A DNA stretch of 64,000 nt from Epithemia pelagica. Its lineage: Eukaryota > Protista > Bacillariophyta. The notes under the pieces are model-generated. The model was not told the origin of the DNA. It ran no database searches and worked only from the letters and a program-made list of their open reading frames with translations. Positions 8,838 through 52,727 of this stretch are shown in pieces. Where the stretch lies: NCBI GenBank assembly GCA_946965045.2, contig OX337236.1, positions 868,001 to 932,000 of the forward strand, written 5' to 3'. The stretch's first letter is position 1. Every line of letters begins with the position of its first letter. Position numbers and translations under genes: made by a program.

Positions 8838-11443
8838 TTGTGGCTACGAGATTCTGGAGACAAATTTTCCTGATCCACCGTGTATCTGTTGGTGATTGCC
8901 CGTAGATCTCCAGCACTTTCATCTCACAGCGAAAATATTACGTGGCCTCATCAATAAGCTTCACCAAATGCCATACTCTGGCTTGATTCACAATCAAGAT
9001 GGTTTGGGTGAATTCTTTGCATTCTGTCGACTGAAAGCTTTGCCGGTTCTGAAAGCACATTAGCAATCCACTCCCTCTCCCTATGTTCCAAAGTTGGCTC
9101 TGATTGAGAGACTCTGTGATTTTTCAATCGGATGATAATTGACTGTGAGGACACCTCCTGTCCTTTCCTCTCATGCTGAAGCAATACGCTGCCACCAAAC
9201 CCATGGCTGGACACCGAAGACCATCCCGAGACATGATCCACAAGAGGTTAGCTTCCCTAAAGTAAGTCGTTAACTGATAGGTCCGCCACTTCTCAATAAT
9301 CCAAACCTGGCAAGAGGTTAAGTAGCCTGGTGGTAAGTTGCTCCTGAGTATACTCAAAACGTTCATGCCCCATCAGATCCTTGACAGCATGGCATAGTTT
9401 GCTAGCTTCCAGTAGGAGACCACATCGAAGGAGTGCTAGAATGGTGTCCACATAAGACTGTAGGTTACCTTCAATATTGTCCAGTGTCAGCTGATCTCGT
9501 AGTTGAATGCTCTTCATGTGCACCTCAGCTTTTCTCATCGATTCTTTATCGTCAGCTTCTCGAAAATTTTTCAACGCTCGCGTCAAATTCTTTAGGCTAT
9601 CCCCTAGATTCGCACTACTCTCAGCTGCAATGGCAAATTTTAGTCCATTCTTCGTCCACTGTTCCATTGTCATCACATTTGCTTCGACGTTGGACAGGTT
9701 TATCGAATCGATTAAACGTGTGTCTTTTTCACGACAAACATACGCCCATTTCTTGAAGGCATCAAAGGCAACGGAATCTCCAGTTTCGGCAAAAATAAGC
9801 CGTTTACAACAACGAGTAACTGCCGTATACAGCTGTTTGAGTTGGGTTTCCAGCTCTGGTGCACAGAATTGGATGTCTGATTTGTAATCTTCCAGGAACA
9901 GCTTTCTCCAAAAGCGTTGGTTTTCATTGGTCAAGTCCTGGAAAAAGTCAACAATCAACACGACATCGAACTCCAAACCTTTGGATTTGCGAATACTAAG
10001 GACAGACGCCGTCTCACCAAACAAACCCTGTAGCTGACTAATCTTAGTGTCATCCATAGAGAGGACGGCCACTCCCTGAAGTTTTTCAACCAGTTCCTTG
10101 AGTTCTTCCCATGACAAATTGGACAGAACGCAAGGTCGTTGGCCTCGAAAGAAACCTTCATCCCGGGGGAGTTCCTTGAACGAACCGGGGAAAGCTGAGA
10201 ACATATTATCCAGGATTCCCGCGGCTAGGTTAAGGACTCCGGCGTGGCTCCGAAAATTGACCTTGAGCATTTTTGGCTTTTCAGGTATCTTTCTGTTTTT
10301 CCCGGAACTGTTGTGGTCGTTCCTGTTGTACAACGTATCTGCCACTATACGAACATCTTCGAACCTGAAATCTATACCCTCTTCAACAGACTGTGCAGGG
10401 TCACCAGCCATAAACAATCCCCCTGGATTGCAAAGAGAGAAAAACAAGGCTATCTCGGCTTGTGTGTAGTCCTGGACTTCGTCCACGTAGAGACGGTTTT
10501 GAAACAGGTTCGAATCTGTGTCGAAATAACGGAGATCTCGTCTTGTCAACACATTCAGGATCCGAGCCACCCTGTTGTTATCGTCCCAAAAGTTGTTTTC
10601 ACGGCAGATCTGTTCGTACCTCTCGAAAATATCGTACGATACTTCACGCTGCTCAAGATTCAAGCGACACTGTCGTGAACCAAGACTCGTGTATTCATCC
10701 CTTGTTAGAGAGCGCCCCTTGCTCACTGCAACAATGGATCCTTTGATAAACGATCTGATTTGAGTCCACGAGACAAGAGCATCCAGCCCATCACTCTCCT
10801 TGTGAACATGTGATTTGAATTTATGGAAATCCATTCGAAGCCTTTCCAAATAGCTGGACCCCACAGTGAGTTCTTCTTCGCATGTTGACAATAGCTTTCT
10901 GTACGTCCAGTAGTCCAAAGACCCACTTTCGTTCTCCAAGCTTTCACCCACAGATTCTTTCACGTACTTGCATATACGTCGTGATCGAGCAACAAAGAGT
11001 TGAGAAAAGGCCAAACTTCCTTCATACTTGTGGCGGTCATTGTGAATGCGCGATGCAATGCAAACGGTTTTTCCTGTTCCGGATCTCCCAAGAACGCAAA
11101 CAGAACCTTCAGACTCAGCAATTTCTTTTTCCTTTGGTGTCATGTACATTGGTGGCCGCCATGTGTTGTGGTTTAAGTTACCCACAAAAGAGGCACCGAC
11201 TTCGTAGAGTTTGAGAGGCAGGTCTGCTTTCGGATCCAGCATTACTTCACCCGTGTCATAATGAAGGTTTTCAACCAGGACATCCGTCACAGGAACTAAC
11301 TGGCGCTTGCTTCGTTTTCCAGCGTCGTCAATCAGACCCATATAGCGAGACACTTTCTTGTGTGCGGCGACGTACCATATGAGAAGTGTTTCATTGGGTC
11401 TCGTCCAAAGAATTCGTTGCCCCGATTTTTGGAGGGGAGTGAA

Positions 11444-11482
11444 ATGACAGACTTTCATGACAGACTTTCATGACAGACTTTC
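11444..11482 (+). repeat. 13-bp unit ATGACAGACTTTC x3 in the left TIR
   Basis: Exact copies at 11444, 11457 and 11470. Confidence 0.95.
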
Positions 11483-12518
11483 GGATAAACTTTCAACTTT
11501 AGAGGGAATTTCGGCCCAACGAGATTCAATCCATACATTTTCCCAAAGTAAAAAACTAAGATGAATTGCCCCTCATCCCTCACATGTACCGACCGATCAA
11601 TGAGATGATCAATCTCAAGATATGCAAACTATCCTCACACACACCATGGCGAGGAGGCTCTAACACAACAGCAATCAACCCGCCTCCTCTACTTGTATGA
11701 ACATGACTAATTGAGTGAGAGCATGTACTAGTTACCTTTGTACATACTTGTATGTGTCATACTCGTAGGCAATCGTTTCGTCCATCCATCCTCGTTCACC
11801 ATCCTGTCTTTTGCCTGCATCGATCCATTTGTCTTTGTCTTTGTTTATTGTTGTTTCACCATCCAGTAAGACACTCCTTCTTCCACTCGAACTGTGTTAT
11901 CGGAAGCAGCCGAATGGTGCTGTTGCCGTGCCGTCGTCGCCGATTGTTTTGCCGTTCGGCAGAAACGAGGAGTTGATTGTTGAGTATGTTGTTCTTGTGG
12001 TTGTAGCCGCATGTTGTTGTTGTCGCTGTCGTTGTTGTAGCCGCATGTTGTTGTTGTCGCTGTCGTTGTCGACGCTTTCTGTCTTGTCGCATGTCGTTGC
12101 TGCAGTCGCCGCATGTCGTTGTTGCTTCTTGTTGTCATTGACGGGCACAGTCTCGTGCACTGGGTTCGGTGACAGCGAGTAGTTGATTGTTGCGTGCGGG
12201 TTGTTTTTGTTGTTGTTGCCGAGTGTTGTCATTGTTCGTTGTTCGTTGGCAGCAAGTAGTTGGTAGGTGATTGTTTGCTGCTCCCTTGGTGTGGTTGGTT
12301 CCATCATTGTTGGGTCCAAACGAGCAGTCTGATTACGGGAAATCAAGACTAAAAGGCAATAGTGTCTCTATCATGTGTAGATATGATGCCATATGTTCGG
12401 AGTTGGTTGGGAACATTTTTTTGTATTGTAAATAAAAGATGCTACAAAAATAAAAAGTTTTCCCGAATGTCTGTCAAAAAGCTACCTGAAACTCCGAATG
12501 TCTGTCAAACAACTACCC

Positions 12519-12642
12519 CGAAAGTCTGTCATTTCACTTTTTCAGGCCTGAATAGCGAAATGACAGACATTCGGGTAAACCGAAAGTCTGTCATTTCACT
12601 TTTTCAGGCCTGAATAGCGAAATGACAGACATTCGGGTAAAC
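12519..12642 (+). repeat. 62-bp tandem duplication made of internal TIR-TIR junctions centred on the palindrome TTCAGGCCTGAA
   Basis: CGAAAGTCTGTCATTTCACTTTTTCAGGCCTGAATAGCGAAATGACAGACATTCGGGTAAAC occurs at 12519 and 12581. Confidence 0.95.
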
Positions 12643-13684
12643 ATTCGTTTTTAGAGTTAGGGTTAAACCGGGTATCGTTGTCATGAACTTGAAGTGGCAC
12701 TGACGAGACAAAAAGGGCTATAGTAAAATGCCATTTTATTTAAATGAAGAGTGCATGTGGAAGAGCAGCAGCGACATGGAGTGCAACCGGATAGTCTGTC
12801 CGTATAACAGCCAACATTTTGAAAGTTTATCCGAAAGTCTGTCATTTCGCTATTCCCCGATTTTTGTTCCAAGTAGGTTTCATAAATTTTTGTGTTAGAT
12901 CCTTTCAAAAGTTTTGCAGTGGTGAAACCCCAGTCACCTTGTGCCAGCTTCTCTATCTTCTTTATGAAAAGCTCCTTGAACTTGGAATCTGCTTCTTTCA
13001 GCCATTTGAGAACTTCTTTTGTGAGCTTGATGCTTCCGTATGCTGAAGGGTTCGTCACAGGGACAACGTTTTCTTCGATAACAACGTCTTCAATGCCATC
13101 CGCATTCAGTTCAACTTCATCATCATTCTCTGTGACGTCGTCGTCTTGGCCTGTCTTCCTTGCCGCCGCTTCAGTAGCCCGCAGCAGCCTCGAGGCAGTG
13201 TGTGCCTTAAGCTCTCCCTCCTCATCGTCACTTTCATCGCCTCCAGATAGCTCGAATCTTATTTGGATAATACTCCACGTTTTCGGGGCCTCACTAAATT
13301 CCTCAGTTTTGGTGTACTCCAAGATTTCTCCCCAAGTCCTCAGGAATTCATCTTCCAACATTCTCAATTCATCTCTACGATTGATTTGGTCCAACAAACG
13401 TTCAGCATGTGAGGTATTCTTTTGCACGTGAAATGAATCCCATGGATCTTCCAAGAGTGAGCCTTTGAGACATTGTGAACGAGCTTCCTCTAGATATCCT
13501 TGTTGTTCCAGAATTCTAGCGTACTCCAAATGAACACCTCTGGCATTGGGTTTCTTTGAGAGAATACTTTTAGCATCTTCACGAGCACCTGTCACATCAC
13601 CACATGCTGCTTTGCATCGTATAATTCCACACATCACCTCAAGCCAGTGGTCCTCTTCCTGGAGCGTCCCTTCATTCAACGTAT

Positions 13685-14452
13685 ACTTAATGTATGTAGA
13701 AAACTAACGTAAGACGTGATGGTTAGTGCTCTGAACTTCTGTAGTCAACCAGTTCACTCGGTACACGATGGGGCCCTCACCTTGCACTAGGTTAGTATGG
13801 TTGACTCCTTCCTAAAGGTTGCTTACAACTTTCAGGTTTTTATAAGAAGTGAGCTTATTCTATCGAAAGTGTTTGTTTCTCATGATTGCTCTTTCATTAC
13901 TTCCTTTCAGTCATAAAGAGTTTACTTTTCCCGAATCGTTGGGCCCGGTGAAGAAACATCTTTGACTTCTAGGTAAGGCGCTACAGACGCTCTACGTTTA
14001 GGGACTAATGGAACCTGTTCTCTTAGTGCATAGAACCTGTTCCATATACTCAAACTGTGAGGGATAGAGGCGGAACTATTGGCTTGAACCAAGTATCCAT
14101 GATCCTTTGGTGAATCTTGTTGTAAGTTGGAGACGTGTATGTTTTAGGTGAGACATAGCCTGGACTTTGCTTCCGAGTGGAGCTCGTCCGGCTTTTGCCT
14201 GTCGTAGATAGTAGTGGGCATATGTAAATGTGTATCACAAAACACCAGGGTTATTCAGAGAGGGAACATTGTGCCGCAGGCTCGGACATGTCACATACAT
14301 GGGCACAGCTTCGTCAGCCGTCCACGCACGTGTTCGCACAAGCTTGCAGGACAGATGGCACAGCTATGTCATGGTAGACGCGTACTCTCATAGAGTCTAG
14401 GTGTTGTTCTTCGAAAGGTAGTTCTAGGTCTATAGCTAGCCGTACTTTAACT
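13685..14452 (-). repeat. 3' LTR (768 bp)
   Basis: Matches 23414-24181 at offset 9729; I saw no differences by eye. On the element strand it reads AGTTAA...TTAAGT. Confidence 0.95.
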
Positions 14453-14461
14453 CTCCCTCTC
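14453..14461 (-). other. polypurine tract GAGAGGGAG
   Basis: Purine run directly 5' of the 3' LTR on the element strand. Confidence 0.8.
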
Positions 14462-14501
14462 ATGGAGTGATTGGGGAATTACGACATGCCGTAGACTCAG
14501 T

Positions 14502-17500
14502 TTACCATCCTTGATTGAGCTTACGGCACTTTTCGAAGAGTTCCCGAGTTTGGCACTTGGTGAAATAATCTGCCCTTTGTTCCTCGGTTCCTACCATGCT
14601 TACCTTCACTCCGCCTGGATGATCACCTACATGTTCCCAGAAGAAGTGTAAGTACGTGTTGAAGTGTTTTGTCCTAGGTGTCAATCTTTGCTTAGTTGCA
14701 AGATAGAAGGCACCTGTATTGTCTTCAAATACTTCAGAGAAGATGGTCGGCTTCTCAAATGGCAGGTCTAGGTTTGCTAGAAGTTCCTCTATCACGCGTC
14801 TTGTAGCTATCACACTTCGCATGGCTTGGGAGAGAGCGTGGTACTCGGCTTGGAGGGTACTTAGTGCAACTGATGATTGTAGCTGCGACCGCCAAATAAG
14901 AGGACACCCACAAAAGCTAAGAATGTAACCAGTCCTGGACTTAGCACTTACTGGGTTGTCTTGAGGCTCCCTTCCATGTAGTCCTGCGAAATCGGCATCT
15001 ACATAGCAATCTAGCTTGAAATCTTTAGTTGGCGTAAAGATGGTTCCTTTATCCTTGGTGCGTGCTAGATAGCGCACTATAGTTTTCACTGCTGCCGCAT
15101 GTGATTTCTTCGGATTAGAGTTGAATCGTGCTACTTGGCTCACAGCGAAGGCTATATCTGGTCGGGTGTTAGTTGCAAGGTACAGTAACATTCCCACGAT
15201 AGAGCTGTATTGCCATTTCTCTTTCATGGGTTCCCCATCAGGATCGCTTCCCAATGCTAATTGTGTAGCAGGGGTCCAATTCGGGTTGCAGTCCTGCATA
15301 TTGGTAGCGTCAATTACCTTGTTGATAAGTCCCTTTTGAGTCATGGTGATCGAATTGGTCTTTTCATCTCGGACAAAGTTGATCCCCAAATAATTGGTGA
15401 AATTTCCTTCTTTTTCCAGTGATAAGCCCTTTTTCTTCAATCGTTCAACTAGTTCGTCAATTAAGGTAATTGTAGGTGCGCACACTCCACAGTCGTCTAC
15501 CCATAGAAAGATGATTATGTTTTCCTTGTACAGTAAACATTGGTCGTGTTTACTCATTTGGAATCCGTCTTCCTTGAGGGCCTGTATTAGGTGGTCATAC
15601 CATAGTCTAGGTGCCGATGACAATCCATAGAGGCTTTTGACCAACCTAAGGCATGTAGTTCCTTTTAACGATGATCGAAATCCTCTAGGCAGATGGATCC
15701 ATACGGGTTCATTCAAAGTGGCTTGCACGAAAGCATTATTGAAGTCAATGCATGCAAGTTCCCATCCTAGAATCAGACTGAGGGTGAGTACAATGCGAAT
15801 AGTACTCCAGTTGACTACAGGGGAATAGTTCTCTTGCTCTGACTCCTGGAGGTCACCGCGAACGCAATATCGTGCTTTGAACTTGGAAATTTCTCCGTCA
15901 GGGGTTCTTTTGCGTTTAAACACCCAGGTACCGGGTAAAATTCGCGTAGTTGCTTCACTCTGCTGCACCTCTACCCATGTTCCCTTTTCTTCTAGTTCTC
16001 GGATTTCTTTGCTGGCTGCAGCCTGCCACTTGGTGAGATCCTTATCTCGCATAGCTTCATCATAACTGAGGGTGTCAGGATCTGATAAGGAAGCTTTCAT
16101 CATGGAGAGAAGGTCACTAGACTGGACAGAGGCTGGGAAACTACATAGGTCTTGTACATAGCGTTTGGGCGGTCGAATAGTTCGTCCGGAACGCCTAGAC
16201 ACCATAGTTGGACCAGGTGTGGGAGCTGGAGTAGGGATGCGAGGCGATTGTGGTGGCTCCCTCTGAGGAGTGGAGGGCTCGAAAGAAGGGGGTGCAGGCA
16301 AAGAAGGGGTCATAGGAGAAGGTTGCTCTGCGATAGTAGGTAGTTTGGTAGGGGTGGTACGGACTGTTTCCCTCTGAGAAAGGGGCGTCGATGGAGAAAG
16401 AGGGGTTACTCCCTCTGACAACGGCACCGGTTTCTCGCCTGGAGCAGAGCCAGGAGTATTAAGAGGGTAGATACCAGGAGAGTTAGAATGACTAGGGAGG
16501 ACGGAAGGGGGGTCGTGAGTCTCAATAGATCGAGTTACAGTGGTCTGTTTGTTGCCAAAGTCGGAATAATGTAGAACATCATGTGGAGCTGGAGACTCAT
16601 AGTCTAGATCATCATCGTCCTCAATGTATTGGTAGTGTGAGTCACCAAAAAGTCGGTCCCATTCGTGACTGGTAAGGTCAGGAAGGTCTTCAACGGAGGT
16701 GGCAATTGTACTAAACCAGTCGTCGAAGACAACGTGGAATTGAGGGGTAATATACCCCGTATTGGGGTTGAGTACCAGTGGTACAGTTGTAGCATGACGG
16801 GTACTTAGGCCCATGAGAATTCCTCGCGTGGAGCGGGGCTTCCATCGTGGAAGCTTCTTACCGTCAGCCATGGCTTTGTCCAATACATAGACGGGACAAC
16901 CCCACACATGTAAGTCATGGAATTTCCGCTGCTCCCATCTTGTTCGTGTAAACAAGTCATGGGGACTTATGCCCGTGTCGAGGCTTGGGACATGGTTACT
17001 TAAGAAAGTTGCATGTGCGACTGCCATTGGCCATAGAGAAGGATCAGCCATTTCGGGCCATTGTATGGCCGCGTGTAGCATCATCGTTCTTGCTATAGAC
17101 ATAATGGTTTGTATTGCTCGTTCGGCTATACCGGCATGGTGATGTGCCCCAACTCCCGCAAATCGATAAGTTTGTGCAAAATTTTGTAGGGACTCCGTAT
17201 ATTTAGCCGATGTAAAGGCAGAGCCATTGTCAGTTAGGTACTGTAGGGGCACAACTCCCACATCTCTACAGAAAAGTTCGAATGAGTCTTTTACTCGTAG
17301 GGTCTCATGGGTGTTTAGATGACTCTGGAACCCAATCCAGGTGTACCCCGAAGCGTGGTCTACAAAGATTGCGCCGCCCATGTACAGGTCGGAAGATTTT
17401 GACTTGTCTCGGGATGTAAATAAGCGTCCTTTAGTGGAGCATACAAAGTGATCTACGCTTACACACTGACCAGGGTAAAGATTTCCGGCTTTTGTTATTC

Positions 17501-20500
17501 CCCGTCTGTCTTTTACAATGGAACTCAAGGTTCCAGGTGATGGACGTCTCTTTTGTTTTCCATATTGACACGCTGCACAAAGAGGTAAGTCGGTGAGTGA
17601 TGCTGCTTTTGTGTGCAAACGGCGCTGTTGCTCAGTTTTTGCGAGAATTCCAGTTCTCATAATGAACTGGATTCGACGAAACGATAGGTGCCCAAGGCGA
17701 AGATGCCAACGTACCAGTTCCTTCTGTGTCTCACTAAGATTCTTGTTTTGTTCTGATGTTTCGTTGACGATTGTGTTGAGAGCATGCGAACTCTTGGTTA
17801 CTTCCTCATGGTTGTAACCGTACGACATTGGGAGATTGTTTTGCGGATTCACAACGACAGTGACTTGTGTTCGTGTTGTGTCTTCAGGTAAACCGGTGAG
17901 TACCAATGTTTTACCGTCTTGCACAATCTTTTCTCCGTCATACGTCTGAAGCAAACTCTGTGTCGATAACAGTCTGACACTTGTCTTGGGTACCAGGAAA
18001 GCAGGAATTCGAAGTTGTCGGATGTTTCCAGAAGAATCAAGGATGCTCCACAAGACCTCTCCGCGGCCAATCGCTTTCATGCGATTGGCGATGCCTTTCA
18101 CCTTGAAGTTTGGTAGTGGTTCGATCTTGCCCACGAAGTCTTTTTCGTTGTTGGTGATGGAGATGCTGGCGCCACTATCCCAGATGATGGGATAAGACGC
18201 GTCATTCGGCATTGCGCTCCTCAAGGCCATTGGATCCTGAAGGCACGCTTCCAAGCCAGCAGGAGTGATGTACCTCCATGAGTCGTAGTTGCGTGTGTTC
18301 CCCAAGACTTGAAAGGCGTTGAGGGAGCGGAGTTCCTCAAGGTATGCAGTCAAACCAAAGACTTGTCTTGGGGTTGATGACTGTCGGTTGCTCCTCAAGG
18401 CTTCACTTCGAGTGGGTGAGTGGTTATCGGTGTTTCTGTTACGACGATTGGGCGTCGTGAACGAGGTTCGGTTGTTGTAATGGAAGCGCTGGTAGCTATT
18501 CGTGGGAATCACAGAGCTGCGGGTTCCCATGGGTGGATTAAACCTGGTACGTGCTGAGTTGTTGTTGTTGTTGTACGGAGTTGCGCGACGACGGAGAGGG
18601 ATTGGTCGCGGCATCCGTTGTCGCATACGCGCTCGTTTGTGTGCCGGTGAAGAAGTCACGGATCGAAACGACGGCTTTCGCTTGACACGAGGGTGATTCA
18701 AAGGGAATGCAGTGTTCTTCCTTCTTTTCGGACGGGTACTGACTGGTGCACACGGAGGAGCAGCGTGAGTGGACCCAAAAGAGTCCAGATGCAACAACTT
18801 ACAAAACGACCCAACAATCAAACGGATGTAAATGAGCGGGAAACGGCGGCTCATGGCATAGGCCAGTCCATTGCTCACCACACTCCACAATCCACCAGAT
18901 GATAAGGTAGAAGAGGGCGGAGGTACCGGATGGAGAGTGGCACGGAAATGGTGGACGGAAGGTGTCGATGTGGAGTTGAACAAAGGAGAAGGATGGCCTG
19001 TCACGGGTGAAATGGTCTTGGGAAGCAAGATCAAAACAACAATCCAGCAGGAAAGCCAAGAAAAGAAGGCAGGTTGGCATGATGGATGGGCCAAAACGCT
19101 CCAGAGCAAAGCCCATAGTCCATAAAATAAAGTCTTGGTTCCCATCCAGTAGTAGCCAAAGCTAGACATGAGAGAGGCCATTCCGTCTGTGAAGACTGTA
19201 GTTGCATAGGTGGAGGGTTGGGGTGATGGCAGAAGATAGAGGACACTGGGTACCACCACAACCAACGTGATGAAGCTAGCACGTAACATGTGACGGCTCA
19301 GGGATCTTGAGTCAACAGTAGTGTCGACAGGCGCGGGAGCGCGTGGCGGAGTCACGTAAGGGCGACCACGGCGGGTTGACTCGGTGTATGACATGTCAAA
19401 GGCAGCCATATAAACCTTCGCGTGGTCATCTGTAGGATAGGACCTGTCTTGGTCAACAGTCACGGTAGAGATGGAGTCATTAGAAGAGACTCGATCGGGA
19501 GTGACCGTAAGACAGGGGCGATCCAAGTTGTACCACGGTGGTGAAATTGGTCCACATTTCGTCAGTTCATAGGCTACATCATGTACGAGACTCAATCCCG
19601 CATGTTCGTAGGGCGATCCTGGTGTTTGTTCGCACTCAAGAATAAAATACCACATGTCGCGAATCATGCGACGGGTATTTTGAATCCGAAGAGTCAAAAG
19701 ATCTTTGAGTCCCGGGTCAGCTGCATGGGAATACTCAGCATACAAAAACCATAAGTGGTCGGCCGCACTTGTGATCAGCTCATCCATGGTGTCAGGATGG
19801 CGAGCCAGTTCGGCTTCATTTTCTGCAGCATCGTCTCCTTGCAAGTTTGTGGTGTCGTCGAGATCCACCATGGCAGCACAGGCATAGTATTTTGCAAATG
19901 GATTTTCGCTGCGCTTTTTGGTCCTAGAGTCGTCGTCGGTTTCGCTGGTATCTGTTGGTACGTACAGTGCACCAAGTTGACTGTTGTCGACGAAAGAGGT
20001 GGATGAGACAGATTCATCAGCCATGTTCTCCAAGGTCTCACACGCTGTGCTTCTTGAATGTAGATCGACGGGCGGTGGATCGGAAATATTCACGGGAGAA
20101 GGCGTGGCGTTACTCTGATTCAAGAACGAGACAAATTGATCATATTTCTGGTCAATGGGTCGGTGCTCCATGATTCGAGAGCGAAGAAGGCAAGGAAGAG
20201 GAGTTGAGTGCACACTCATCTCGGGCCAGACGGGAGCTGGATTCGGATGGTTCGGGATTCTGGTTCCATCAATGAACCATCCCACGAACCATTCTTCGTC
20301 CTTGACTCGCTGGTAGGCGACAGCCACGGTAAGTTCTGGTTCTTGGTGTCGAAGAGCGTACACCGTGTACTGTGCCCTTTCGTACCTCATTCCGTCTCTT
20401 TTTGCTGTGTTGGCTTCTTGCTCGATGGAGATGCGTGGATCACGTGGACGTGGCCGAGGTACAAAACCTCGAGTCCACTGCTCGAGAGCTTCAGTGGCAG

Positions 20501-23153
20501 GAGTCGGGAATTGGTCATGGCGCAATGGCGTCGGGTTCGTCACCGGTGAGATCTCGGGTCGCCGAAGAGCTGGCGGCTTCGAGTCGTCCAGGAGTCCTTC
20601 TTGCAGGTTCTTGAGGTGGGTAAGGTCGCTGCTGTTGTCATGGCTGATAAGCGATCCTTCTTGTGTATCCATGGTTGTGTCCAAACCACCAGCATTCTCA
20701 TCACTATCCTGTTCGTCCTCCTGCTTGATCTTGGTGCTGTCGAAGCTTTTGTCGTGCACAGCTGCGTTGGCTTCAACGCTAGAGAAGGTACGTTGGTCTG
20801 TGGGACTGTGGTCACTGCCGTACCACATATCGATGTCGTCCCACCTGTCGAAGTACAGTGTCTTGGCATGCGATCCACTCAACTTTCCCTTTTTCATTTC
20901 TTGTTCTTCTTCCTTGTTACTTGCCGAACTCGGTAAGTCTTTGTTTGCCACAACCACAACTGGTGTGAGTTTTTGTGCCACAAGTGGTGGCATATCAGCA
21001 TACTCATCTTCGTTGTCTTCACTTTCAGTGGAGCTGTCATCGTCCTTGTGAGGTCGACAGATCGAGACTGTTGCATTATTTGTGCTTGTTTTCTTTTCTT
21101 TTGTTTCTGTGTTGCAAGTGCATGGTTCATTGTCATCATCCTTGTGGTCGCTATCGTTGTGATTGGTGGCGGTTGGTTCATTGTTGTTGGGTGACAGGAT
21201 GCGGCGCAATTCGTCAAACGGAATAGGCGGTGTCCGGTCAGTGTCATCATCGTCGTTTCCAGAGTTGGTGGAACTGCAGTCCATGGACGAGCTGTCATCG
21301 GATGGTGACATGTCCCAAATGGTGAAGAAGACGTAGTGGTCGACGGTGTCCTTGCAACAATCAACCGAATCGCAACAATCATCATCATCATTCATCAGAG
21401 CTTCGCAACAATCCATAGAGGCAAGGGACATACAGTCGGGTAAAGCAGCGACGGGCAAGGCAGGAGGATCAAGTTGGTCGAGATCGAATTCGGTCTGCCA
21501 AGCGGATACTTCGAGTTCAAGTTTCTTCGCATGGGTGGCATTCCGAGGTTTTGCTTTGTCCTTGTCGCCAGGAGACTTTTTATACCCAACAATATGGTTT
21601 GCCGTGGTGTGAGAGGTGTTCCAACGGGTACAAACACCACACCAGAACCACCGCTGACCCTGGATCGTCTGCTGCTCAGGTGCACCAGGAGCAGGAGGGA
21701 TCTTCTTCCAAGGGTGAGCCTGCGATCGATCAACGCGAGTGTTGTTACGCTTGTGAATCGGCTTTCCCTTCCTGTCGCGGTGATTGGAGCCAGGCTGGGT
21801 GTTTGGTCCATTGCTTGGAGTCGGATTGGAACCCGGCGGGTTTCGAAGTGTCTGAATGAGTGCATTAAGACTAGCTTGAGTCATAATAGAATGCCGTTTC
21901 TTCTTAGTCTTCGAAACGGTAGCCTTGTTAGCGGTGAACGACGAGGGGACGGATTTAGAATCAGGAGAACTTCGTTTAGGTGACCATTCACCTTCCTTGA
22001 CACAGATTAGGTACTTCTTGTTCGCCTCTTCGATAACATCTGTGTACAAAAGACGCTCTTTCTTCATATGACTGTCTCCGATAGAGCGATCTAGAAACCG
22101 AATATGGATAATACCGTCATTGACAGGCTTGTTCAGAGTAAGTAGGTCGAACTTAGGCGTGTCAGGCCATTCAGTCTTGAGGATGTTAGCTAGGAGGTTC
22201 CCAGTCAGAGTGTGGTCGTACTGTCCAGCTGCGATCAACGGTCGCGCTTTTTCCGAAAAATCTTTAGTCAACGCCATAATATCGTGGCCAGGGTACTTGT
22301 GAGGCACAAGAGCTCGCATCTCGTGCTTCACTTGTTCCCAGTGCTGCGGGGAATCATGTGTCACGATGGTGACAAGGACCATGAAGAGCTCGGGGAAGCA
22401 CGTCACTTCCCGACTCTGGTCCTCAACTTCGTGCCTAAAGGACTTTTCCAAACAGTCCAGTAAGTAGTCCTGGGCACTGACGTCGTTGTTTCTGTCGTAC
22501 TTGTCATAACTCACAATCTGCGTCTTCATCAATTCCTTCACCTTGCTCATCGTATATTTTGGGTGCTCGATTACAATGAACAACATGTCTTTGGGATCAT
22601 GAGGATTGGGGAGGTATGCGATCGAGTCCATGCCGTGTTTAATCAAGTGCTGCTTGATTTCATCCTGGAGACGGCTAAAATCACCGGTCTTTTTGCTGTA
22701 CTTTTCGTCAGGCCCGGAGATACGATCGTAGTATTTCTTGTCTGTCAGGGTACGTATCTGCATCGTTCGCAGTGGTTCTGTCGCCTTTACCTCTAACCCA
22801 TCCCACTTGTACGTGGGTTTTCCTCCAGTCCAGGCCACCCATTCGTCCTTCTTGCTTCGGACCAGTCCGCCAATCTTCGGCGGGTCGGGGCGGTAATCGA
22901 TACCGGGTGGAGGAGTAGGAGTCTCGTCACTCATGGTGGTCTTCCTTCTTTGTCGTTGAGATGCAACAATCAAACCCTGATGTTGGGTGTCGTTGTTAGA
23001 TGGACCTGGTGGAGACTCAACAATCTGCGATTCCGAAGCAGCAATACTCTGTCCTTGTTCGTCAACAAGGGCGTCTTCGTTCGTCGGATTGGCTACAGGT
23101 GTTGGAAGATCAACGGTACTGGATACGGTGTCTTTGTCACCTGGTATGGACAC
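14502..23153 (-). CDS. copia Gag-Pol polyprotein with a ~1,000-aa extra region (2,883 codons from GTG; first ATG at 22934 gives 2,810 aa)
   Basis: Gag Cys/His motif WFWCGVCTRWNTSH (~21610-21650); protease IWDSGAS (DSGA at 18168-18179); integrase HLRLGH..CAAC, SVDH, YLTDNGSAF and GIAERAI; RT WVFKRKR, KARYCVRG, LYGLSSAPRLW and WVDD; RNase H YVDADFAG, QAEY, EDN and QRADYFTK. Confidence 0.95.
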   Translation of the reverse strand: MSIPGDKDTVSSTVDLPTPVANPTNEDALVDEQGQSIAASESQIVESPPGPSNNDTQHQGLIVASQRQRRKTTMSDETPTPPPGIDYRPDPPKIGGLVRSKKDEWVAWTGGKPTYKWDGLEVKATEPLRTMQIRTLTDKKYYDRISGPDEKYSKKTGDFSRLQDEIKQHLIKHGMDSIAYLPNPHDPKDMLFIVIEHPKYTMSKVKELMKTQIVSYDKYDRNNDVSAQDYLLDCLEKSFRHEVEDQSREVTCFPELFMVLVTIVTHDSPQHWEQVKHEMRALVPHKYPGHDIMALTKDFSEKARPLIAAGQYDHTLTGNLLANILKTEWPDTPKFDLLTLNKPVNDGIIHIRFLDRSIGDSHMKKERLLYTDVIEEANKKYLICVKEGEWSPKRSSPDSKSVPSSFTANKATVSKTKKKRHSIMTQASLNALIQTLRNPPGSNPTPSNGPNTQPGSNHRDRKGKPIHKRNNTRVDRSQAHPWKKIPPAPGAPEQQTIQGQRWFWCGVCTRWNTSHTTANHIVGYKKSPGDKDKAKPRNATHAKKLELEVSAWQTEFDLDQLDPPALPVAALPDCMSLASMDCCEALMNDDDDCCDSVDCCKDTVDHYVFFTIWDMSPSDDSSSMDCSSTNSGNDDDDTDRTPPIPFDELRRILSPNNNEPTATNHNDSDHKDDDNEPCTCNTETKEKKTSTNNATVSICRPHKDDDSSTESEDNEDEYADMPPLVAQKLTPVVVVANKDLPSSASNKEEEQEMKKGKLSGSHAKTLYFDRWDDIDMWYGSDHSPTDQRTFSSVEANAAVHDKSFDSTKIKQEDEQDSDENAGGLDTTMDTQEGSLISHDNSSDLTHLKNLQEGLLDDSKPPALRRPEISPVTNPTPLRHDQFPTPATEALEQWTRGFVPRPRPRDPRISIEQEANTAKRDGMRYERAQYTVYALRHQEPELTVAVAYQRVKDEEWFVGWFIDGTRIPNHPNPAPVWPEMSVHSTPLPCLLRSRIMEHRPIDQKYDQFVSFLNQSNATPSPVNISDPPPVDLHSRSTACETLENMADESVSSTSFVDNSQLGALYVPTDTSETDDDSRTKKRSENPFAKYYACAAMVDLDDTTNLQGDDAAENEAELARHPDTMDELITSAADHLWFLYAEYSHAADPGLKDLLTLRIQNTRRMIRDMWYFILECEQTPGSPYEHAGLSLVHDVAYELTKCGPISPPWYNLDRPCLTVTPDRVSSNDSISTVTVDQDRSYPTDDHAKVYMAAFDMSYTESTRRGRPYVTPPRAPAPVDTTVDSRSLSRHMLRASFITLVVVVPSVLYLLPSPQPSTYATTVFTDGMASLMSSFGYYWMGTKTLFYGLWALLWSVLAHPSCQPAFFSWLSCWIVVLILLPKTISPVTGHPSPLFNSTSTPSVHHFRATLHPVPPPSSTLSSGGLWSVVSNGLAYAMSRRFPLIYIRLIVGSFCKLLHLDSFGSTHAAPPCAPVSTRPKRRKNTAFPLNHPRVKRKPSFRSVTSSPAHKRARMRQRMPRPIPLRRRATPYNNNNNSARTRFNPPMGTRSSVIPTNSYQRFHYNNRTSFTTPNRRNRNTDNHSPTRSEALRSNRQSSTPRQVFGLTAYLEELRSLNAFQVLGNTRNYDSWRYITPAGLEACLQDPMALRSAMPNDASYPIIWDSGASISITNNEKDFVGKIEPLPNFKVKGIANRMKAIGRGEVLWSILDSSGNIRQLRIPAFLVPKTSVRLLSTQSLLQTYDGEKIVQDGKTLVLTGLPEDTTRTQVTVVVNPQNNLPMSYGYNHEEVTKSSHALNTIVNETSEQNKNLSETQKELVRWHLRLGHLSFRRIQFIMRTGILAKTEQQRRLHTKAASLTDLPLCAACQYGKQKRRPSPGTLSSIVKDRRGITKAGNLYPGQCVSVDHFVCSTKGRLFTSRDKSKSSDLYMGGAIFVDHASGYTWIGFQSHLNTHETLRVKDSFELFCRDVGVVPLQYLTDNGSAFTSAKYTESLQNFAQTYRFAGVGAHHHAGIAERAIQTIMSIARTMMLHAAIQWPEMADPSLWPMAVAHATFLSNHVPSLDTGISPHDLFTRTRWEQRKFHDLHVWGCPVYVLDKAMADGKKLPRWKPRSTRGILMGLSTRHATTVPLVLNPNTGYITPQFHVVFDDWFSTIATSVEDLPDLTSHEWDRLFGDSHYQYIEDDDDLDYESPAPHDVLHYSDFGNKQTTVTRSIETHDPPSVLPSHSNSPGIYPLNTPGSAPGEKPVPLSEGVTPLSPSTPLSQRETVRTTPTKLPTIAEQPSPMTPSLPAPPSFEPSTPQREPPQSPRIPTPAPTPGPTMVSRRSGRTIRPPKRYVQDLCSFPASVQSSDLLSMMKASLSDPDTLSYDEAMRDKDLTKWQAAASKEIRELEEKGTWVEVQQSEATTRILPGTWVFKRKRTPDGEISKFKARYCVRGDLQESEQENYSPVVNWSTIRIVLTLSLILGWELACIDFNNAFVQATLNEPVWIHLPRGFRSSLKGTTCLRLVKSLYGLSSAPRLWYDHLIQALKEDGFQMSKHDQCLLYKENIIIFLWVDDCGVCAPTITLIDELVERLKKKGLSLEKEGNFTNYLGINFVRDEKTNSITMTQKGLINKVIDATNMQDCNPNWTPATQLALGSDPDGEPMKEKWQYSSIVGMLLYLATNTRPDIAFAVSQVARFNSNPKKSHAAAVKTIVRYLARTKDKGTIFTPTKDFKLDCYVDADFAGLHGREPQDNPVSAKSRTGYILSFCGCPLIWRSQLQSSVALSTLQAEYHALSQAMRSVIATRRVIEELLANLDLPFEKPTIFSEVFEDNTGAFYLATKQRLTPRTKHFNTYLHFFWEHVGDHPGGVKVSMVGTEEQRADYFTKCQTRELFEKCRKLNQGW

Positions 23154-23400
23154 GAGGTCGAAGCTTCCTGCACCACTGGAAGTTGGTGAGTCCTCGTCGC
23201 TCGTGTTGGTACCTTGGTTGGAGCCTTGATGGCTTCCGGCGCGCTTGGTTGGATGCTAGTGGGTCGATAACCACGTAGCAATGGAGATTTGTCGTTCCCT
23301 TCCTGATGAACACAATAATTCACACTGAAGAGAGGTTGGTTCGGTCCGTCGGTCTTGTCGGCAATACGATAGAGGAGGCGTACGGTTCGTCAGCCTCTTT

Positions 23401-23413
23401 GGGCTCAATAACC
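23401..23413 (-). other. primer-binding site GGTTATTGAGCCC (half-tRNA iMet type with one extra base)
   Basis: Starts immediately after the 5' LTR. It is complementary to the initiator-tRNA anticodon arm GGGCUCAUAACC except for one inserted T. Confidence 0.65.
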
Positions 23414-24181
23414 ACTTAATGTATGTAGAAAACTAACGTAAGACGTGATGGTTAGTGCTCTGAACTTCTGTAGTCAACCAGTTCACTCGGTACACGATGG
23501 GGCCCTCACCTTGCACTAGGTTAGTATGGTTGACTCCTTCCTAAAGGTTGCTTACAACTTTCAGGTTTTTATAAGAAGTGAGCTTATTCTATCGAAAGTG
23601 TTTGTTTCTCATGATTGCTCTTTCATTACTTCCTTTCAGTCATAAAGAGTTTACTTTTCCCGAATCGTTGGGCCCGGTGAAGAAACATCTTTGACTTCTA
23701 GGTAAGGCGCTACAGACGCTCTACGTTTAGGGACTAATGGAACCTGTTCTCTTAGTGCATAGAACCTGTTCCATATACTCAAACTGTGAGGGATAGAGGC
23801 GGAACTATTGGCTTGAACCAAGTATCCATGATCCTTTGGTGAATCTTGTTGTAAGTTGGAGACGTGTATGTTTTAGGTGAGACATAGCCTGGACTTTGCT
23901 TCCGAGTGGAGCTCGTCCGGCTTTTGCCTGTCGTAGATAGTAGTGGGCATATGTAAATGTGTATCACAAAACACCAGGGTTATTCAGAGAGGGAACATTG
24001 TGCCGCAGGCTCGGACATGTCACATACATGGGCACAGCTTCGTCAGCCGTCCACGCACGTGTTCGCACAAGCTTGCAGGACAGATGGCACAGCTATGTCA
24101 TGGTAGACGCGTACTCTCATAGAGTCTAGGTGTTGTTCTTCGAAAGGTAGTTCTAGGTCTATAGCTAGCCGTACTTTAACT
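23414..24181 (-). repeat. 5' LTR (768 bp)
   Basis: Direct repeat of 13685-14452. A candidate TATAAAA lies on the element strand near 23566-23573. Confidence 0.95.
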
Positions 24182-25287
24182 CGTATCGACAGCTCGACGG
24201 TAATAATTTAGAGCCAAGGTCCACTTTTCAAGGCCTTCCAGGGCTGCCCCCATCCTCCGATAGGGTTCCACAATGAGCATTCGATTATTGCCAACCTCAG
24301 TTGTATTTGCTTTTGTTGTGCTGTATGTAATCATCTCTAACAGAACCTCCTCTGCAGTGTCGAATGTCTGAAGCCTCAGGTACATGTCGGCCAGTAGCAG
24401 GTATCCCTCAAACAACTTCCTTTCGTTGGTCTGGGTAGATTTTTCGAGGGATGGGAGTGCCTTTAAGTAAGTGATAGCATCACGAATGTAGACATCTTTT
24501 CTCTCGCTAGGAATCGATGGATGATCGGAATTCTCGACACACTGCCGGGCATGGTTGACTATGAGTTCTTCAAAACACTTTGTCAGCTGTTGTCGACACG
24601 AAGGACATCGTCCAAAAGGCGTTCGACCACGGGAGCCCAAGATTTTAGACTGGAGTGATTTCACACATTGCAGGCACATACGTTCTTGACATGGCTCCAG
24701 AACGATTGGATGCAAAACATGCCCCGAACGTTTGTTGGGACAAGTGGTCAGAGCACAAGCGACACTGGCATCGAACCGATGAAACGATTGTGGATATCCT
24801 TCGCCTAAAACATGTTGTGCTTTCTCTTCGAAAGAAAAACATTGAGCTTTATGTCTATTCAAATAGTCATCTTTCTGACATCTGAGGAAGAGTTTTGTAA
24901 GTTGCCATTGCCAAGGTAATCGACTCATAATCCATTTCTTGAGACTCACTTTGAGGAACAGTAGAAAGCATTTCGACAGCGGGAGCACTGGAACTGTGGA
25001 TCTTCCTTCCCACATAATTCACATCGTCTGATCAATGACATGGTTACGGTTCAGGAACCGGCTAAATATACAGCCATCGTCGGGATCAGATGCCACGGCG
25101 CCAGAAAACTACCTCTGCTACTAGCTAGAGTAGAGAGGAGGCCTCAATAGACTACCCCAACTATAGACTACCCCGATTGATACTTCTCCTATTGAGAGCG
25201 GGTACCGACTCCTCCGCCTACAACGAACGATGAGTTCCTAGATCGCAGATGGATTTCATGATTTCTTATTCAGCTCGTGTAGATCAA

Positions 25288-38502: not shown

Positions 38503-38643
38503 TGGCTATCGCCACTTCAGTTGCGTGCTACCTCAACCGTCCTTGGCTTGTGATAGAAGATAGCTAGACGAGTAGCTGGTGTTGGGCGAAATACTCCTAG
38601 TTTTCTAGGAGCCCAAACCTTGCTACCGTGCTAGCGGAAAGCC
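38503..38643 (-). repeat. split direct repeat B2 (141 bp)
   Basis: Matches 38801-38935 except for 6 extra bases (GAAATACTCCTAGTTTT versus GAAATAGTTTT). Confidence 0.95.
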
Positions 38644-38658
38644 AGGGCGGGTAGGGCG

Positions 38659-38801
38659 GGTTAATCTATTCTATTCCGAACGGTCTCTCGTGACGGCAAG
38701 AAAAGAATGAGACTTGGCTCTGTGCGATGTGTGTGACACCCGGGTTGCTTTGCTGGACGGGCACGCGCGTCGTCCGTCAATCGTCCGCACGCAACAACAA
38801 T
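38659..38801 (-). repeat. split direct repeat A2 (143 bp)
   Basis: Identical by eye to 44539-44681 (offset 5880). Confidence 0.95.
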
Positions 38802-38935
38802 GGCTATCGCCACTTCAGTTGCGTGCTACCTCAACCGTCCTTGGCTTGTGATAGAAGATAGCTAGACGAGTAGCTGGTGTTGGGCGAAATAGTTTTCTAG
38901 GAGCCCAAACCTTGCTACCGTGCTAGCGGAAAGCC
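38801..38935 (-). repeat. split direct repeat B1 (135 bp)
   Basis: Matches 38503-38643 and shares one T with A2 at the junction. Confidence 0.95.
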
Positions 38936-39082
38936 CACTTCTTGGTGGGCCAAGATAGTGACGGGTGGGACGGGTGACATCGGAGGTGTGGGAGATTGTA
39001 GAGAATGAGTGGGGAATTTGGATGGGAAATAGAAATGGGTATGGGGAGGGTTGGTGCCGTAGGAGTAGGTATGGAACTCGGG

Positions 39083-40648
39083 CTATTCGGGGTAGGCGTC
39101 AAGGAGAGGATCGACGGTTGTTGGTGTGGTGGCGCCCGGGGCTAGAGTGAAGGATCCATGGTCCAGCATGGTTTCGGCGAGACCGCATACGACGGGGATG
39201 GAGCGGGCGTGGAGGTAGCGGAACATGGCATCGGACCGCCATCGTCCCACGAGGCGGATGAGGTCCGTGTCAACTTTTGCTGCCAACAAGGCCATGGCAC
39301 CGCCCGAACGGAGCCCACGAGTTTGGATGTTTTGCATGTCAAGTCCGCAAAGGGGGACACCACCGGACACCTGTCGCAGAAAGGCCGCAATCATAGTGGA
39401 GGTGACGTAATGGAAGAAGCCTTGTCGTGTGGTTGTGTATGCGCAAAGGGGAGTTTCAGGGCCTGCTCCTGCGTGTCGAAGGGCGATTATGCGGCGAACC
39501 AACGAGCGTGTTGGACACATTACTGCATCACCGCTGAGGGCATGGGCGATTATTTCACCTTTGTTGCGATTCTTTTGGTTGTCAAAGGTGATGGCAGAAG
39601 TTGTTGCCTTGAGCAATTCGGTTTCCGGGCAAGCGAAGATGTCAAGCTTGCGGATTCCGACGCAAATAGAAATGTTGCGGCAGAGAAGTGGATAGTTGTC
39701 ATGTGTGAAGGAAAATTCACCGGGGCGGAGCAGGTAGAAAAAACCAATCCATGCCAGTTCCATGGTTGCCTGTGTTTCTTCATCCAAAGTACAGGCGGCG
39801 ATCCGTTGTGCAGTGCGAAGAAGTTGAAGTGGTATGGGTTGTACACGGGCCGGAGGAGGGTCTTTGTTGCGCCAGCTTTTCAACAAGCGTTGGAGGCGGA
39901 TGTCGATGGCGCCGAATTTGTCAAGCCGTGGGTCAGGGGCCCCCATATGGCTAAACGTTTTTGCAATGGAGTGCAGCTCGTCAGCCACGGTATCAGCTTT
40001 GACGGGCTGGTGACTGCGGCTGCATCGTCCATCTCGTATGCGAACGGCGAGGACCTGCAGGATGGGGATTTTGTCTTCGGTGGCAGCAAGGAGGGTGTCG
40101 ACTCCGAGGGATCTGCAAAAAGGTTGCCAAATCTTGGTCCACGAGCGTTGTTGGGCGGATGCGCGTGAGGGTGTGACTGAGTTCCAGGCCGACAACCTTG
40201 CAATGCGCAGATCACTGAGGAAAGAACGTCGGATTGGGGGTGGCGAAGCTGCCAGGAGTGTGTCTGTGGAAAGGCGTTGTTGAAATGGGTGAGTAAAGCA
40301 TGTTGGGACAGATGTGTTAGACGTGACGCATGATCGGCCATGATGTTTTTCTCCCCTGGGAGGTAATGAACCGCGTGTTGGTAGCGGTATTGTCGTTGGT
40401 GAAGGCTCTGCAGTCGGAGTAGGTAAGCTGCTGCGCCGTCGGACGTAATGCTTTTTCGCTTGTTCCAAGCCACGGCGCTGACGTTGTCGCAACCGGTGGC
40501 GAGTGTTGTTTCCTGGATGTTGGCCATGGAGGACAGGACATCGGCATGCAGGATTGTAGCGGCGAGTTCTAAATCGTTGATAGTAATTGTGCCACCGGGG
40601 TTTTCGAATGTCTGCAATTGGGATGTGATGCAGTCTGGCAAAGAGCAA
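39083..40648 (-). CDS. tyrosine recombinase ORF of the retroelement (true start unknown; overlaps pol)
   Basis: AWIGFFYLLRPGEF (catalytic Arg), FDNQKNRNKG (Lys), TRGLRSGGA and GRWRSDAMFRYL (Trp and Tyr nucleophile). Confidence 0.92.
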   Translation of the reverse strand: MLFARLHHIPIADIRKPRWHNYYQRFRTRRYNPACRCPVLHGQHPGNNTRHRLRQRQRRGLEQAKKHYVRRRSSLPTPTAEPSPTTIPLPTRGSLPPRGEKHHGRSCVTSNTSVPTCFTHPFQQRLSTDTLLAASPPPIRRSFLSDLRIARLSAWNSVTPSRASAQQRSWTKIWQPFCRSLGVDTLLAATEDKIPILQVLAVRIRDGRCSRSHQPVKADTVADELHSIAKTFSHMGAPDPRLDKFGAIDIRLQRLLKSWRNKDPPPARVQPIPLQLLRTAQRIAACTLDEETQATMELAWIGFFYLLRPGEFSFTHDNYPLLCRNISICVGIRKLDIFACPETELLKATTSAITFDNQKNRNKGEIIAHALSGDAVMCPTRSLVRRIIALRHAGAGPETPLCAYTTTRQGFFHYVTSTMIAAFLRQVSGGVPLCGLDMQNIQTRGLRSGGAMALLAAKVDTDLIRLVGRWRSDAMFRYLHARSIPVVCGLAETMLDHGSFTLAPGATTPTTVDPLLDAYPE

Positions 40649-44538: not shown

Positions 44539-44681
44539 GGTTAATCTATTCTATTCCGAACGGTCTCTCGTGACGGCAAGAAAAGAATGAGACTTGGCTC
44601 TGTGCGATGTGTGTGACACCCGGGTTGCTTTGCTGGACGGGCACGCGCGTCGTCCGTCAATCGTCCGCACGCAACAACAAT
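44539..44681 (-). repeat. split direct repeat A1 (143 bp)
   Basis: Identical by eye to 38659-38801. Confidence 0.95.
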
Positions 44682-51845: not shown

Positions 51846-52727
51846 CCAACCTAGAAGTATTCTTGGATGTCCAAGACAATGAAAAGGTCACCATGATCGT
51901 CGGCACGCCTCTTGGATAGGTGTGAGATATCCTCTCCATCGTTCCCCAGAGACTCCATGGATTGTCGAGTAAATTCTCAACTCTTTTGCGCACTGGAACG
52001 GCAAACAAGGGAGCCATTCATCGAGTCTGAGCTCCCAAAGGAATTGTTGGCCTCCACTACAGACAACAATTGCTTGGATTGTTATTGCGCACATGCTTCT
52101 TGTGTGGCTTTATCATCAACACAAAAGAAGATGGTTTCAAGGTGATGATGATGATGATGGTCTTGTTTGGTACAGGAAAATGGTCGATGTGGCATTTCCC
52201 GATTCGGGAATCTCCCACGTTTGCGTGGGAGGAATCGACGACAATCCCCAGGTATTGCAAACCACCTTTAAGTGTGGCAAACACGCCAACCTAGAAGTAT
52301 TCTTGGATGTCCAAGACAATGAAAAGGTCACCATGATCGTCGGCACGCCTCTTGGATAGGTGTGAGATATCCTCTCCATCGTTCCCCAGAGACTCCATGG
52401 ATTGTCGAGTAAATTCTCAACTCTTTTGCGCACTGGAACGGCAAACAAGGGAGCCATTCATCGAGTCTGAGCTCCCAAAGGAATTGTTGGCCTCCACTAC
52501 AGACAACAATTGCTTGGATTGTTATTGCGCACATGTTTCTTGTGTGGCTTTATCATCAACACAACAAGATGGTTTCAAGGTGATGATGATGATGATGGTC
52601 TTGTTTGGTAGAGGAAAATGGTCGATGTGGCATTCCCCGATTCGGGAATCTCCCACGTTTGCGTGGGAGGAATCGATGACAATCCCCAGGTATTGCAAAC
52701 CACCTTTAACTGTGGCAAACACGCCAA
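51846..52727. repeat. tandem duplication, 440 bp + 438 bp, bounded by CCAA microhomology
   Basis: Copy 1 is 51846-52285 and copy 2 is 52286-52723. CCAA occurs at 51846, 52286 and 52724. The unit includes the last ~50 codons of the adjacent methyltransferase. Confidence 0.95.

Follow-up and report, generated by a model that had tools for sequence, protein, structure and literature searches.

A conserved hydrophobic and basic block between Gag and protease in a diatom Ty1/copia lineage, with a possible role at membranes

The question raised by this locus is whether an LTR retrotransposon of the diatom Epithemia pelagica encodes a membrane module within its Gag-Pol polyprotein, and what such a module could do. 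The element lies in a stretch of 64,000 nucleotides (contig OX337236.1, positions 868,001 to 932,000; hereafter the window), and an initial annotation described its polyprotein as twice the usual size, with a multi-transmembrane (TM) block and a basic arm inserted between Gag and protease. To our knowledge, the particles of Ty1/copia elements are usually considered soluble and confined to the inside of the cell, and the membrane proteins of LTR elements that we know of are encoded by separate ORFs.

The element is an intact, recently inserted Ty1/copia retrotransposon. It is complete at 13685-24181 on the minus strand (10.5 kb) and possesses two LTRs with a target site duplication, the copia domain order with a copia-type reverse transcriptase, and a primer binding site and polypurine tract. 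Two traits that are common in Ty1/copia elements and do not define them are absent. The LTR termini read AGTTAA...TTAAGT, that is, AG...GT rather than TG...CA, and the CCHC knuckle that is present in the Gag of most relatives has no match in the Gag of the window element and its clade. The boundaries of the element are marked by the following features.

23414 to 24181, minus strand: 5' LTR, 768 nt, its ends placed by the 5-bp target duplication
13685 to 14452, minus strand: 3' LTR, 768 nt
13680 to 13684 (left copy) and 24182 to 24186 (right copy), unstranded: target site duplication, 5 bp
23401 to 23413, minus strand: primer binding site, complementary to the anticodon arm CU-CAU-AA with one extra base
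14453 to 14461, minus strand: polypurine tract

The LTR pair shows 100% identity across 769 aligned nt. An empty site was seen in contigs of runs X1 and X3, where position 13679 is joined to 24182 and five letters fit both sides. Together with the identical LTRs and the duplication, this empty site indicates that the insertion is recent and is missing from some chromosome copies or sampled cells. Five other full-length copies (2,871-2,883 aa), one of them identical to the window protein, are found among the 15 of 33 cluster members listed, and the sister families have several full-length copies each. The insertion lies between coding stretches for a RING/TPR protein (24176-25018), a TPR protein (12681-13703) and a UvrD-like helicase (9293-11467), all on the minus strand; it probably interrupts one large gene, and an empty allele exists. 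The interval from the TPR to the helicase stretch contains short repeats, both direct and inverted and about 60 nt long (12485-12642), which are possibly a small insertion or footprint. Elsewhere in the window, 38503-44681 (minus strand) holds what we take to be a tyrosine-recombinase retrotransposon of the DIRS/Ngaro type, with three ORFs (Gag-like, 42427-44550; reverse transcriptase with a weak RVT_1 match, 39880-42426; recombinase-like, 39083-40774) and split direct repeats, in which 38659-38801 equals 44539-44681 and 38503-38643 resembles 38801-38935. A tandem duplication of 440 nt, 98% identical, occupies 51846-52727.

Priming likely involves a half-tRNA, which we take to be that of tRNA-iMet. 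In Hemivirus-type priming, the primer is a half-tRNA and ends in the anticodon stem-loop (PMC1181622); in the window, the complement of the primer site can be read as an anticodon arm with CAU, interrupted by an extra base that is also found in some relatives. The sequence GGTTAT(N)GAGCCC directly follows LTR ends other than TG/CA in the window (23401-23420) and at 12 places in related loci (L006-L078). The element is probably of the CoDi type; no named CoDi sequence occurs among the matches listed. It resembles the CoDi Ty1/copia elements of diatoms (PMC2806351) in its copia domain order and recent insertion, and it has named relatives from the diatom Fragilaria crotonensis. Its LTR falls within the CoDi range of 153-844 bp and TG/CA termini are likewise absent in CoDi3.2, 4.2 and 4.3, whereas CoDi elements measure 5,182-8,062 bp, compared to 10.5 kb here (PMC2806351).

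The polyprotein is encoded by one minus-strand open frame (14502-23255) of 2,917 aa from stop to stop, or 2,810 aa when translation is taken to begin at the first Met (22934), in agreement with the uninterrupted frame of about 2,800 aa first described. Its parts are arranged as follows.

14502 to 22934, minus strand: single Gag-Pol ORF, 2,810 aa
21585 to 22934, minus strand: Gag, aa 1-450, aligning with the Gag of most relatives
17775 to 18257 (approximate limits), minus strand: aspartic protease, DSG motif at about 18180; Pfam Pol_BBD match below the cut-off (E 0.023)
16665 to 17747 (approximate limits), minus strand: integrase, gag_pre-integrs (E 1.6e-8)
15267 to 15953, minus strand: reverse transcriptase, RVT_2 (134.5 bits, E 6e-39)
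14505 to 15047, minus strand: RNase H, acidic catalytic-type motifs, no Pfam match

The integrase has further Pfam matches below the cut-off to rve (E 7e-4) and SH3_retrovirus (E 2.8e-5). The last region, which we take to be RNase H from a motif read off the sequence, is 93-94% identical in two sister families, and with RNase H assigned by motif the order Gag-protease-integrase-reverse transcriptase-RNase H is that of copia elements. About 40 nt separate the pol stop from the polypurine tract, with no further ORF between them. Gag shares 61, 62 and 53% identity with three sister families. At its end is a C-x2-C-x6-H-x4-H motif (21650-21609), which is conserved in the lineage and predicted at pLDDT 93 in a relative.

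The spacer between this Cys/His motif and the protease, estimated initially at about 1,000 aa, is slightly longer at 1,142 aa. The motifs looked up were all in place: EQWTRGFVP (20483), DEEWFVGWF (20300), DELITSAADH (19784) and RDMWYFILEC (19661); hydrophobic stretches at 19280, 19130, 19070, 18893 and 18836; and, for the basic arm and protease, RPKRRKN (18734), KRARMRQR (18638) and IIWDSGAS (18188). The statement that the polyprotein is twice the usual size fails within its lineage, where it is about 1.4-fold the median of 2,062 aa, a median that is taken from the 95 of 107 scorable proteins above 1,900 aa and is biased upward by a search that admitted 1,545-4,918 aa only. The hydrophobic and basic part of the spacer consists of the following segments.

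19230 to 19286, minus strand: predicted TM helix 1, aa 1217-1235, KD19 2.07
19086 to 19202, minus strand: loop, likely an amphipathic helix, aa 1245-1283, KD19 at most 1.13
19023 to 19079, minus strand: predicted TM helix 2, aa 1286-1304, KD19 1.92 and the best biological-scale score
18801 to 18839, minus strand: conserved RLIV..C.LL helix, not TM-like
18345 to 18749, minus strand: basic arm, aa 1396-1530, net charge +29

Of the three to four hydrophobic segments originally counted, two are TM-like (KD19 2.07 and 1.92), while the third is marginal (1.13) and the fourth, GLWSVVSNGLAY, is unconserved and not TM-like. TM helix 1 aligns with a hydrophobic helix in all four sister families. At positions aligned with the loop, the sister families have charged residues. 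Arg and Lys occur within the conserved RLIV..CKLL helix. TM helix 2 is likely the counterpart of the lineage-wide APLxW helix, with which it pairs weakly by hhalign (E 0.015, probability 3%). The hydrophobic peak of the window exceeds composition shuffles at p = 0.01 (200 shuffles), and the spacer includes 38 consecutive residues that are free of D, E, K and R. Based on hydropathy and alignment, from which the topology in the window is drawn (the AlphaFold model being that of a relative's spacer, L007), the block looks like a two-helix hairpin rather than three to four passes. The basic arm begins about 90 aa after TM helix 2.

The block is a lineage-wide feature and not a private insert, and the excess length of the element sits elsewhere. 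Relatives were the best 120 of 374 by protease-integrase (the window protein and 119 matches), of which 107 were scorable and 13 lacked a landmark; the named eukaryotic ones are all from Fragilaria crotonensis, and one further named relative among the matches listed carries a bacterial MAG label. The median spacer in the 107 polyproteins is 337 aa. Segments with a Kyte-Doolittle KD19 of at least 1.6 occur in 101/107 spacers, compared to 1/100 Gags and 0/107 protease-integrase regions, and 99/107 spacers beat composition shuffles at p <= 0.05. The median net charge of the tail that follows the block is +27, the charge after the block exceeds that before it in 77/91, and an H..YP..LR motif is present in 51/107. 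The block is not universal: 6/107 fall below KD 1.6, L044 and P0254 do not possess it, and it is present in 16/25 more distant proteins.

The number of segments varies within the lineage. At the threshold giving two in the window, exactly two are found in three sister families and in 3/4 other long-spacer families. A rough biological-scale score assigned two segments to 38 of the 107 spacers, one to 53 and none to 16, and so does not support a clean hairpin lineage-wide; a single pass between two cytosolic domains poses a topology problem. Homology of the window block to the block of short-spacer elements appears weak, as a short-spacer profile scored 1.4 bits with the window block, 11.5-19.1 with the sisters and at most 9.2 with reversed sequences.

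The block is under purifying selection in the relatives. Its dN/dS is 0.16-0.21 in the closest group (4/6 pairs computable) and 0.34-0.68 in more distant pairs, these pairs being relatives with DNA from outside the window's own clade and with synonymous sites near saturation throughout. A T-rich DNA tract was rejected as the source of the hydrophobicity because T is enriched at codon position 2 alone (0.52 vs 0.26; position 3, 0.30 vs 0.30) in 34 open frames with DNA (33 loci and the window; L044, with no segment, was left out). In the AlphaFold model of the L007 spacer (50-row alignment), three consecutive helices of 18-22 residues at pLDDT of about 70-90 are followed by a basic helix; the model is locally confident and has no global or packed fold (pTM 0.26). 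A fold search with this relative's spacer gave 0 matches to viral structures at E <= 0.001. No match was obtained in IMG/VR. A glycosylated luminal loop was rejected as a general feature, as N-glycosylation sequons are not enriched in the loops (5 of 34 Asn vs a background of 0.17). Overall, the membrane module proposed in the initial annotation is supported by its hydrophobic helices, its basic C-terminal side, its conservation and a dN/dS below 1 in relatives. The results that had been named as speaking against it, namely no TM prediction, absence from relatives or neutral evolution, were not obtained, with TM prediction here made by hydropathy.

The excess length of the window protein is an acidic extension between the end of Gag and TM helix 1, which contains two islands.

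19305 to 21497, minus strand: clade-specific acidic extension, aa 480-1210, net charge -71, likely mostly disordered
20235 to 20405, minus strand: island 1 core, aa 844-900 (57 aa), extending to 20010 in the three closest families
19560 to 19799, minus strand: island 2, aa 1046-1125, predicted helical hairpin (pLDDT about 50-60)

A quick tree was built from 40 chosen proteins and 30 loci (70 rows; SH-aLRT values only). Nine long-spacer families group together in it (SH-aLRT 95), on a branch that arises within the short-spacer elements, from which it follows that the extension is derived. The five families with island 1 form a sub-branch (SH-aLRT 94), and most of the long-spacer families probably come from one assembly. 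The spacer of L029 lengthened independently. Long spacers with extra CCHC-like knuckles were observed in L029 (2110-4552, 814 aa) and L061 (797-2408, 537 aa), the latter also with tandem repeats; sequence gains seem to be favoured in the spacer.

Across the sisters, identity in the first acidic part is 9-18%. The island 1 core shares 81, 81, 70 and 58% identity with four sister families and is better conserved than Gag (58-81% vs 53-62%). It is predicted to be helical at low confidence (island model mean pLDDT 40.5, 3 rows), and a PDB fold search with the island model was empty. Island 2 is present in 2/4 sister families at 25-30% identity and absent from P0173 and P0220; a likeness seen by eye in P0055 scored 2.2 bits and is not claimed. 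No island homologue outside these elements was identified among 1.84 billion representatives, which gave four matches (one with a downstream protease and three short unannotated fragments), or among shorter proteins, which gave one match, a copy of the same family. A captured host domain was rejected as the origin of the extension, with no non-retroelement homologue identified, as was internal duplication, with no self-match. The short hydrophobic motifs CAF(V/M)A and YYA recur between the acidic tracts and may be protease sites. Among the differences between copies in the 40 rows listed (83 further rows lie outside the listing), 5/9 in the spacer change an amino acid vs 2/17 in Pol; none of the four listed nearest the island 1 core, island 2 and the helix that follows the TM block alters the protein.

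Further evidence for the position of the module comes from two distant families, L048 and L049 (with which L050 is counted as one family). In these, an in-frame TGA followed by GGA ends Gag (2696-2698 in L048, 338-340 in L049), and Pol continues in the same frame. Between the Gag Cys/His motif and the TGA lies a conserved Ala-Trp motif, and the downstream Pol frame starts with the hydrophobic and basic module. Several proteins related to the L048/L049 clade also begin with such a hydrophobic segment. The TGA therefore likely marks the end of Gag, placing the module at the head of Pol, with which it travels. The TGA-GGA sequence is also a candidate for programmed readthrough in a copia clade. 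A conserved splice-donor motif was not found at the Gag end (1/29 loci vs 4/29 background), so splicing is not an evident route to free Gag.

Based on these observations, we propose that a two-helix membrane hairpin tethers Gag-Pol to the ER or to the nuclear envelope while particles assemble, a reading to which we give an even chance. The nascent chain would be brought to the ER by the signal recognition particle at helix 1. With two passes, Gag and Pol would both stay cytosolic, as would the basic arm, for which RNA or acidic lipids are possible ligands. The membrane would then be the place where the polyprotein is translated, where the arm captures RNA and where particles assemble before the protease frees the parts. 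Cuts by the protease may fall at A-N/H-L-like sites behind Gag and at V-N-M-A-like sites ahead of the protease domain, allowing Gag and the enzymes to leave the anchor. These flanking sites are candidates guessed from motifs, and they loosely resemble the Ty1 cleavage sites TARAH/N, VPTIN/N and IHLIA/A (PMC6952103). The acidic extension would be a cytosolic accessory region freed by the same protease, and island 1 a small interaction module; a factor of host defence or of assembly is its most plausible partner. Yeast Ty1, of the same superfamily, offers a precedent in which translation and the ER membrane are tied to assembly: SRP takes part in the translation of its RNA, and the ER nucleates the sites at which its particles form (PMC3945221). 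The Gag of Ty1 travels through the ER lumen, with no membrane anchor described in the abstract of that study (PMC3945221), whereas here an anchor is predicted within the polyprotein.

Alternatively, the module may set the Gag:Pol ratio, with ribosome stalling or membrane-linked degradation of the Pol part leading to the excess of Gag for which an element with a single ORF needs some means. This reading is tentative and rather doubtful. The module lies just past the natural end of Gag marked by the TGA in L048 and L049, basic tracts can stall ribosomes, and the lack of a conserved splice donor is also in its favour. However, the families with the stop already have a means of making free Gag and still keep the module, and a degron would not require helix spacing and motifs (APLxW; H..YP..LR) as well conserved as these. 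Membrane tethering and control of Gag:Pol stoichiometry are mutually compatible.

It is unlikely that the helices are not inserted in a membrane and instead form a hydrophobic oligomerisation core in the particle, with the basic arm serving as an extra nucleic-acid chaperone. The many spacers with one or no segment on the stricter score are consistent with such a core, and an extra RNA-binding arm could compensate for the missing CCHC knuckle in the window Gag. The 38-residue run without charged residues argues for membrane insertion instead, as does the free variation of the sequence while its hydrophobicity stays, as in TM helices, and the AlphaFold model of the relative's spacer shows no packed fold.

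The initial annotation also suggested budding or cell-to-cell spread, and nothing found favours either over simple tethering or control of the amount of Pol. In this scenario, which we consider quite unlikely, the module, once excised, would act as a small membrane protein, budding particles into membranes or carrying them from cell to cell, perhaps at gamete fusion. Vegetative diatom cells are walled in silica, and the module has no ectodomain, no match to viral folds and no enrichment of sequons, all of which count against it. Candidate protease sites on both sides of the module are in its favour, and horizontal transfer is favoured for CoDi4 by Maumus et al. (PMC2806351). Additionally, the sORF2/FAST-like proteins of the insect MDG1 group, LTR elements without env, are reported to have a comparable layout, with polybasic and amphipathic segments behind a TM helix (PMC11952523). 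In contrast to the module, which is internal and in frame in a copia element and has two predicted passes, sORF2/FAST proteins are encoded by separate ORFs of 63-107 aa in Ty3/gypsy elements and have an N-myristoylation motif and one TM segment (PMC11952523). The polybasic and amphipathic regions are thus shared, but the separate ORF, and with it an N-terminal myristoylation site, is lacking.

We judge it similarly improbable that the module is a substitute for an envelope within Gag-Pol, in which the freed hairpin would wrap particles in ER membrane or cross gamete membranes and the acidic region would act as a counter-defence protein. Extra coding capacity, sometimes with TM domains, is known from the env-like 3' ORFs of Sirevirus and Athila elements; those ORFs are separate and outside gag-pol, whereas the extra sequence here is inside the polyprotein (PMC6317226, PMC7264820). 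Finally, we consider it highly improbable that the spacer, in full or in its acidic extension, is no more than a tolerated linker, open only because Pol is downstream: the poorly conserved first acidic part and the amino-acid-changing copy differences are in its favour, but the island 1 core, the four synonymous differences and a TM-block dN/dS near 0.2 in the closest relatives with DNA refute it for the TM block and island 1 and leave it tenable for aa 520-690.

The word 'transmembrane' occurs 0 times in the main text of PMC2806351, in 10.1101/2025.10.24.684338 and in PMC6317226. Literature searches outside subscription journals, Repbase/GyDB and the Maumus supplement gave no paper with a TM block in diatom copia elements in its title or in the opening of its abstract. 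If the module proved to be a substitute for an envelope, these would be the first membrane-associated, possibly infectious Ty1/copia elements. Island 1, conserved better than Gag, is a candidate for a new accessory protein. Returning to the tethering that we propose, if a membrane module is conserved within Gag-Pol across a large lineage, then a dominant group of diatom transposons would assemble on membranes, and the module would offer a direct handle on the site of particle nucleation and on how an element with a single ORF makes an excess of Gag.
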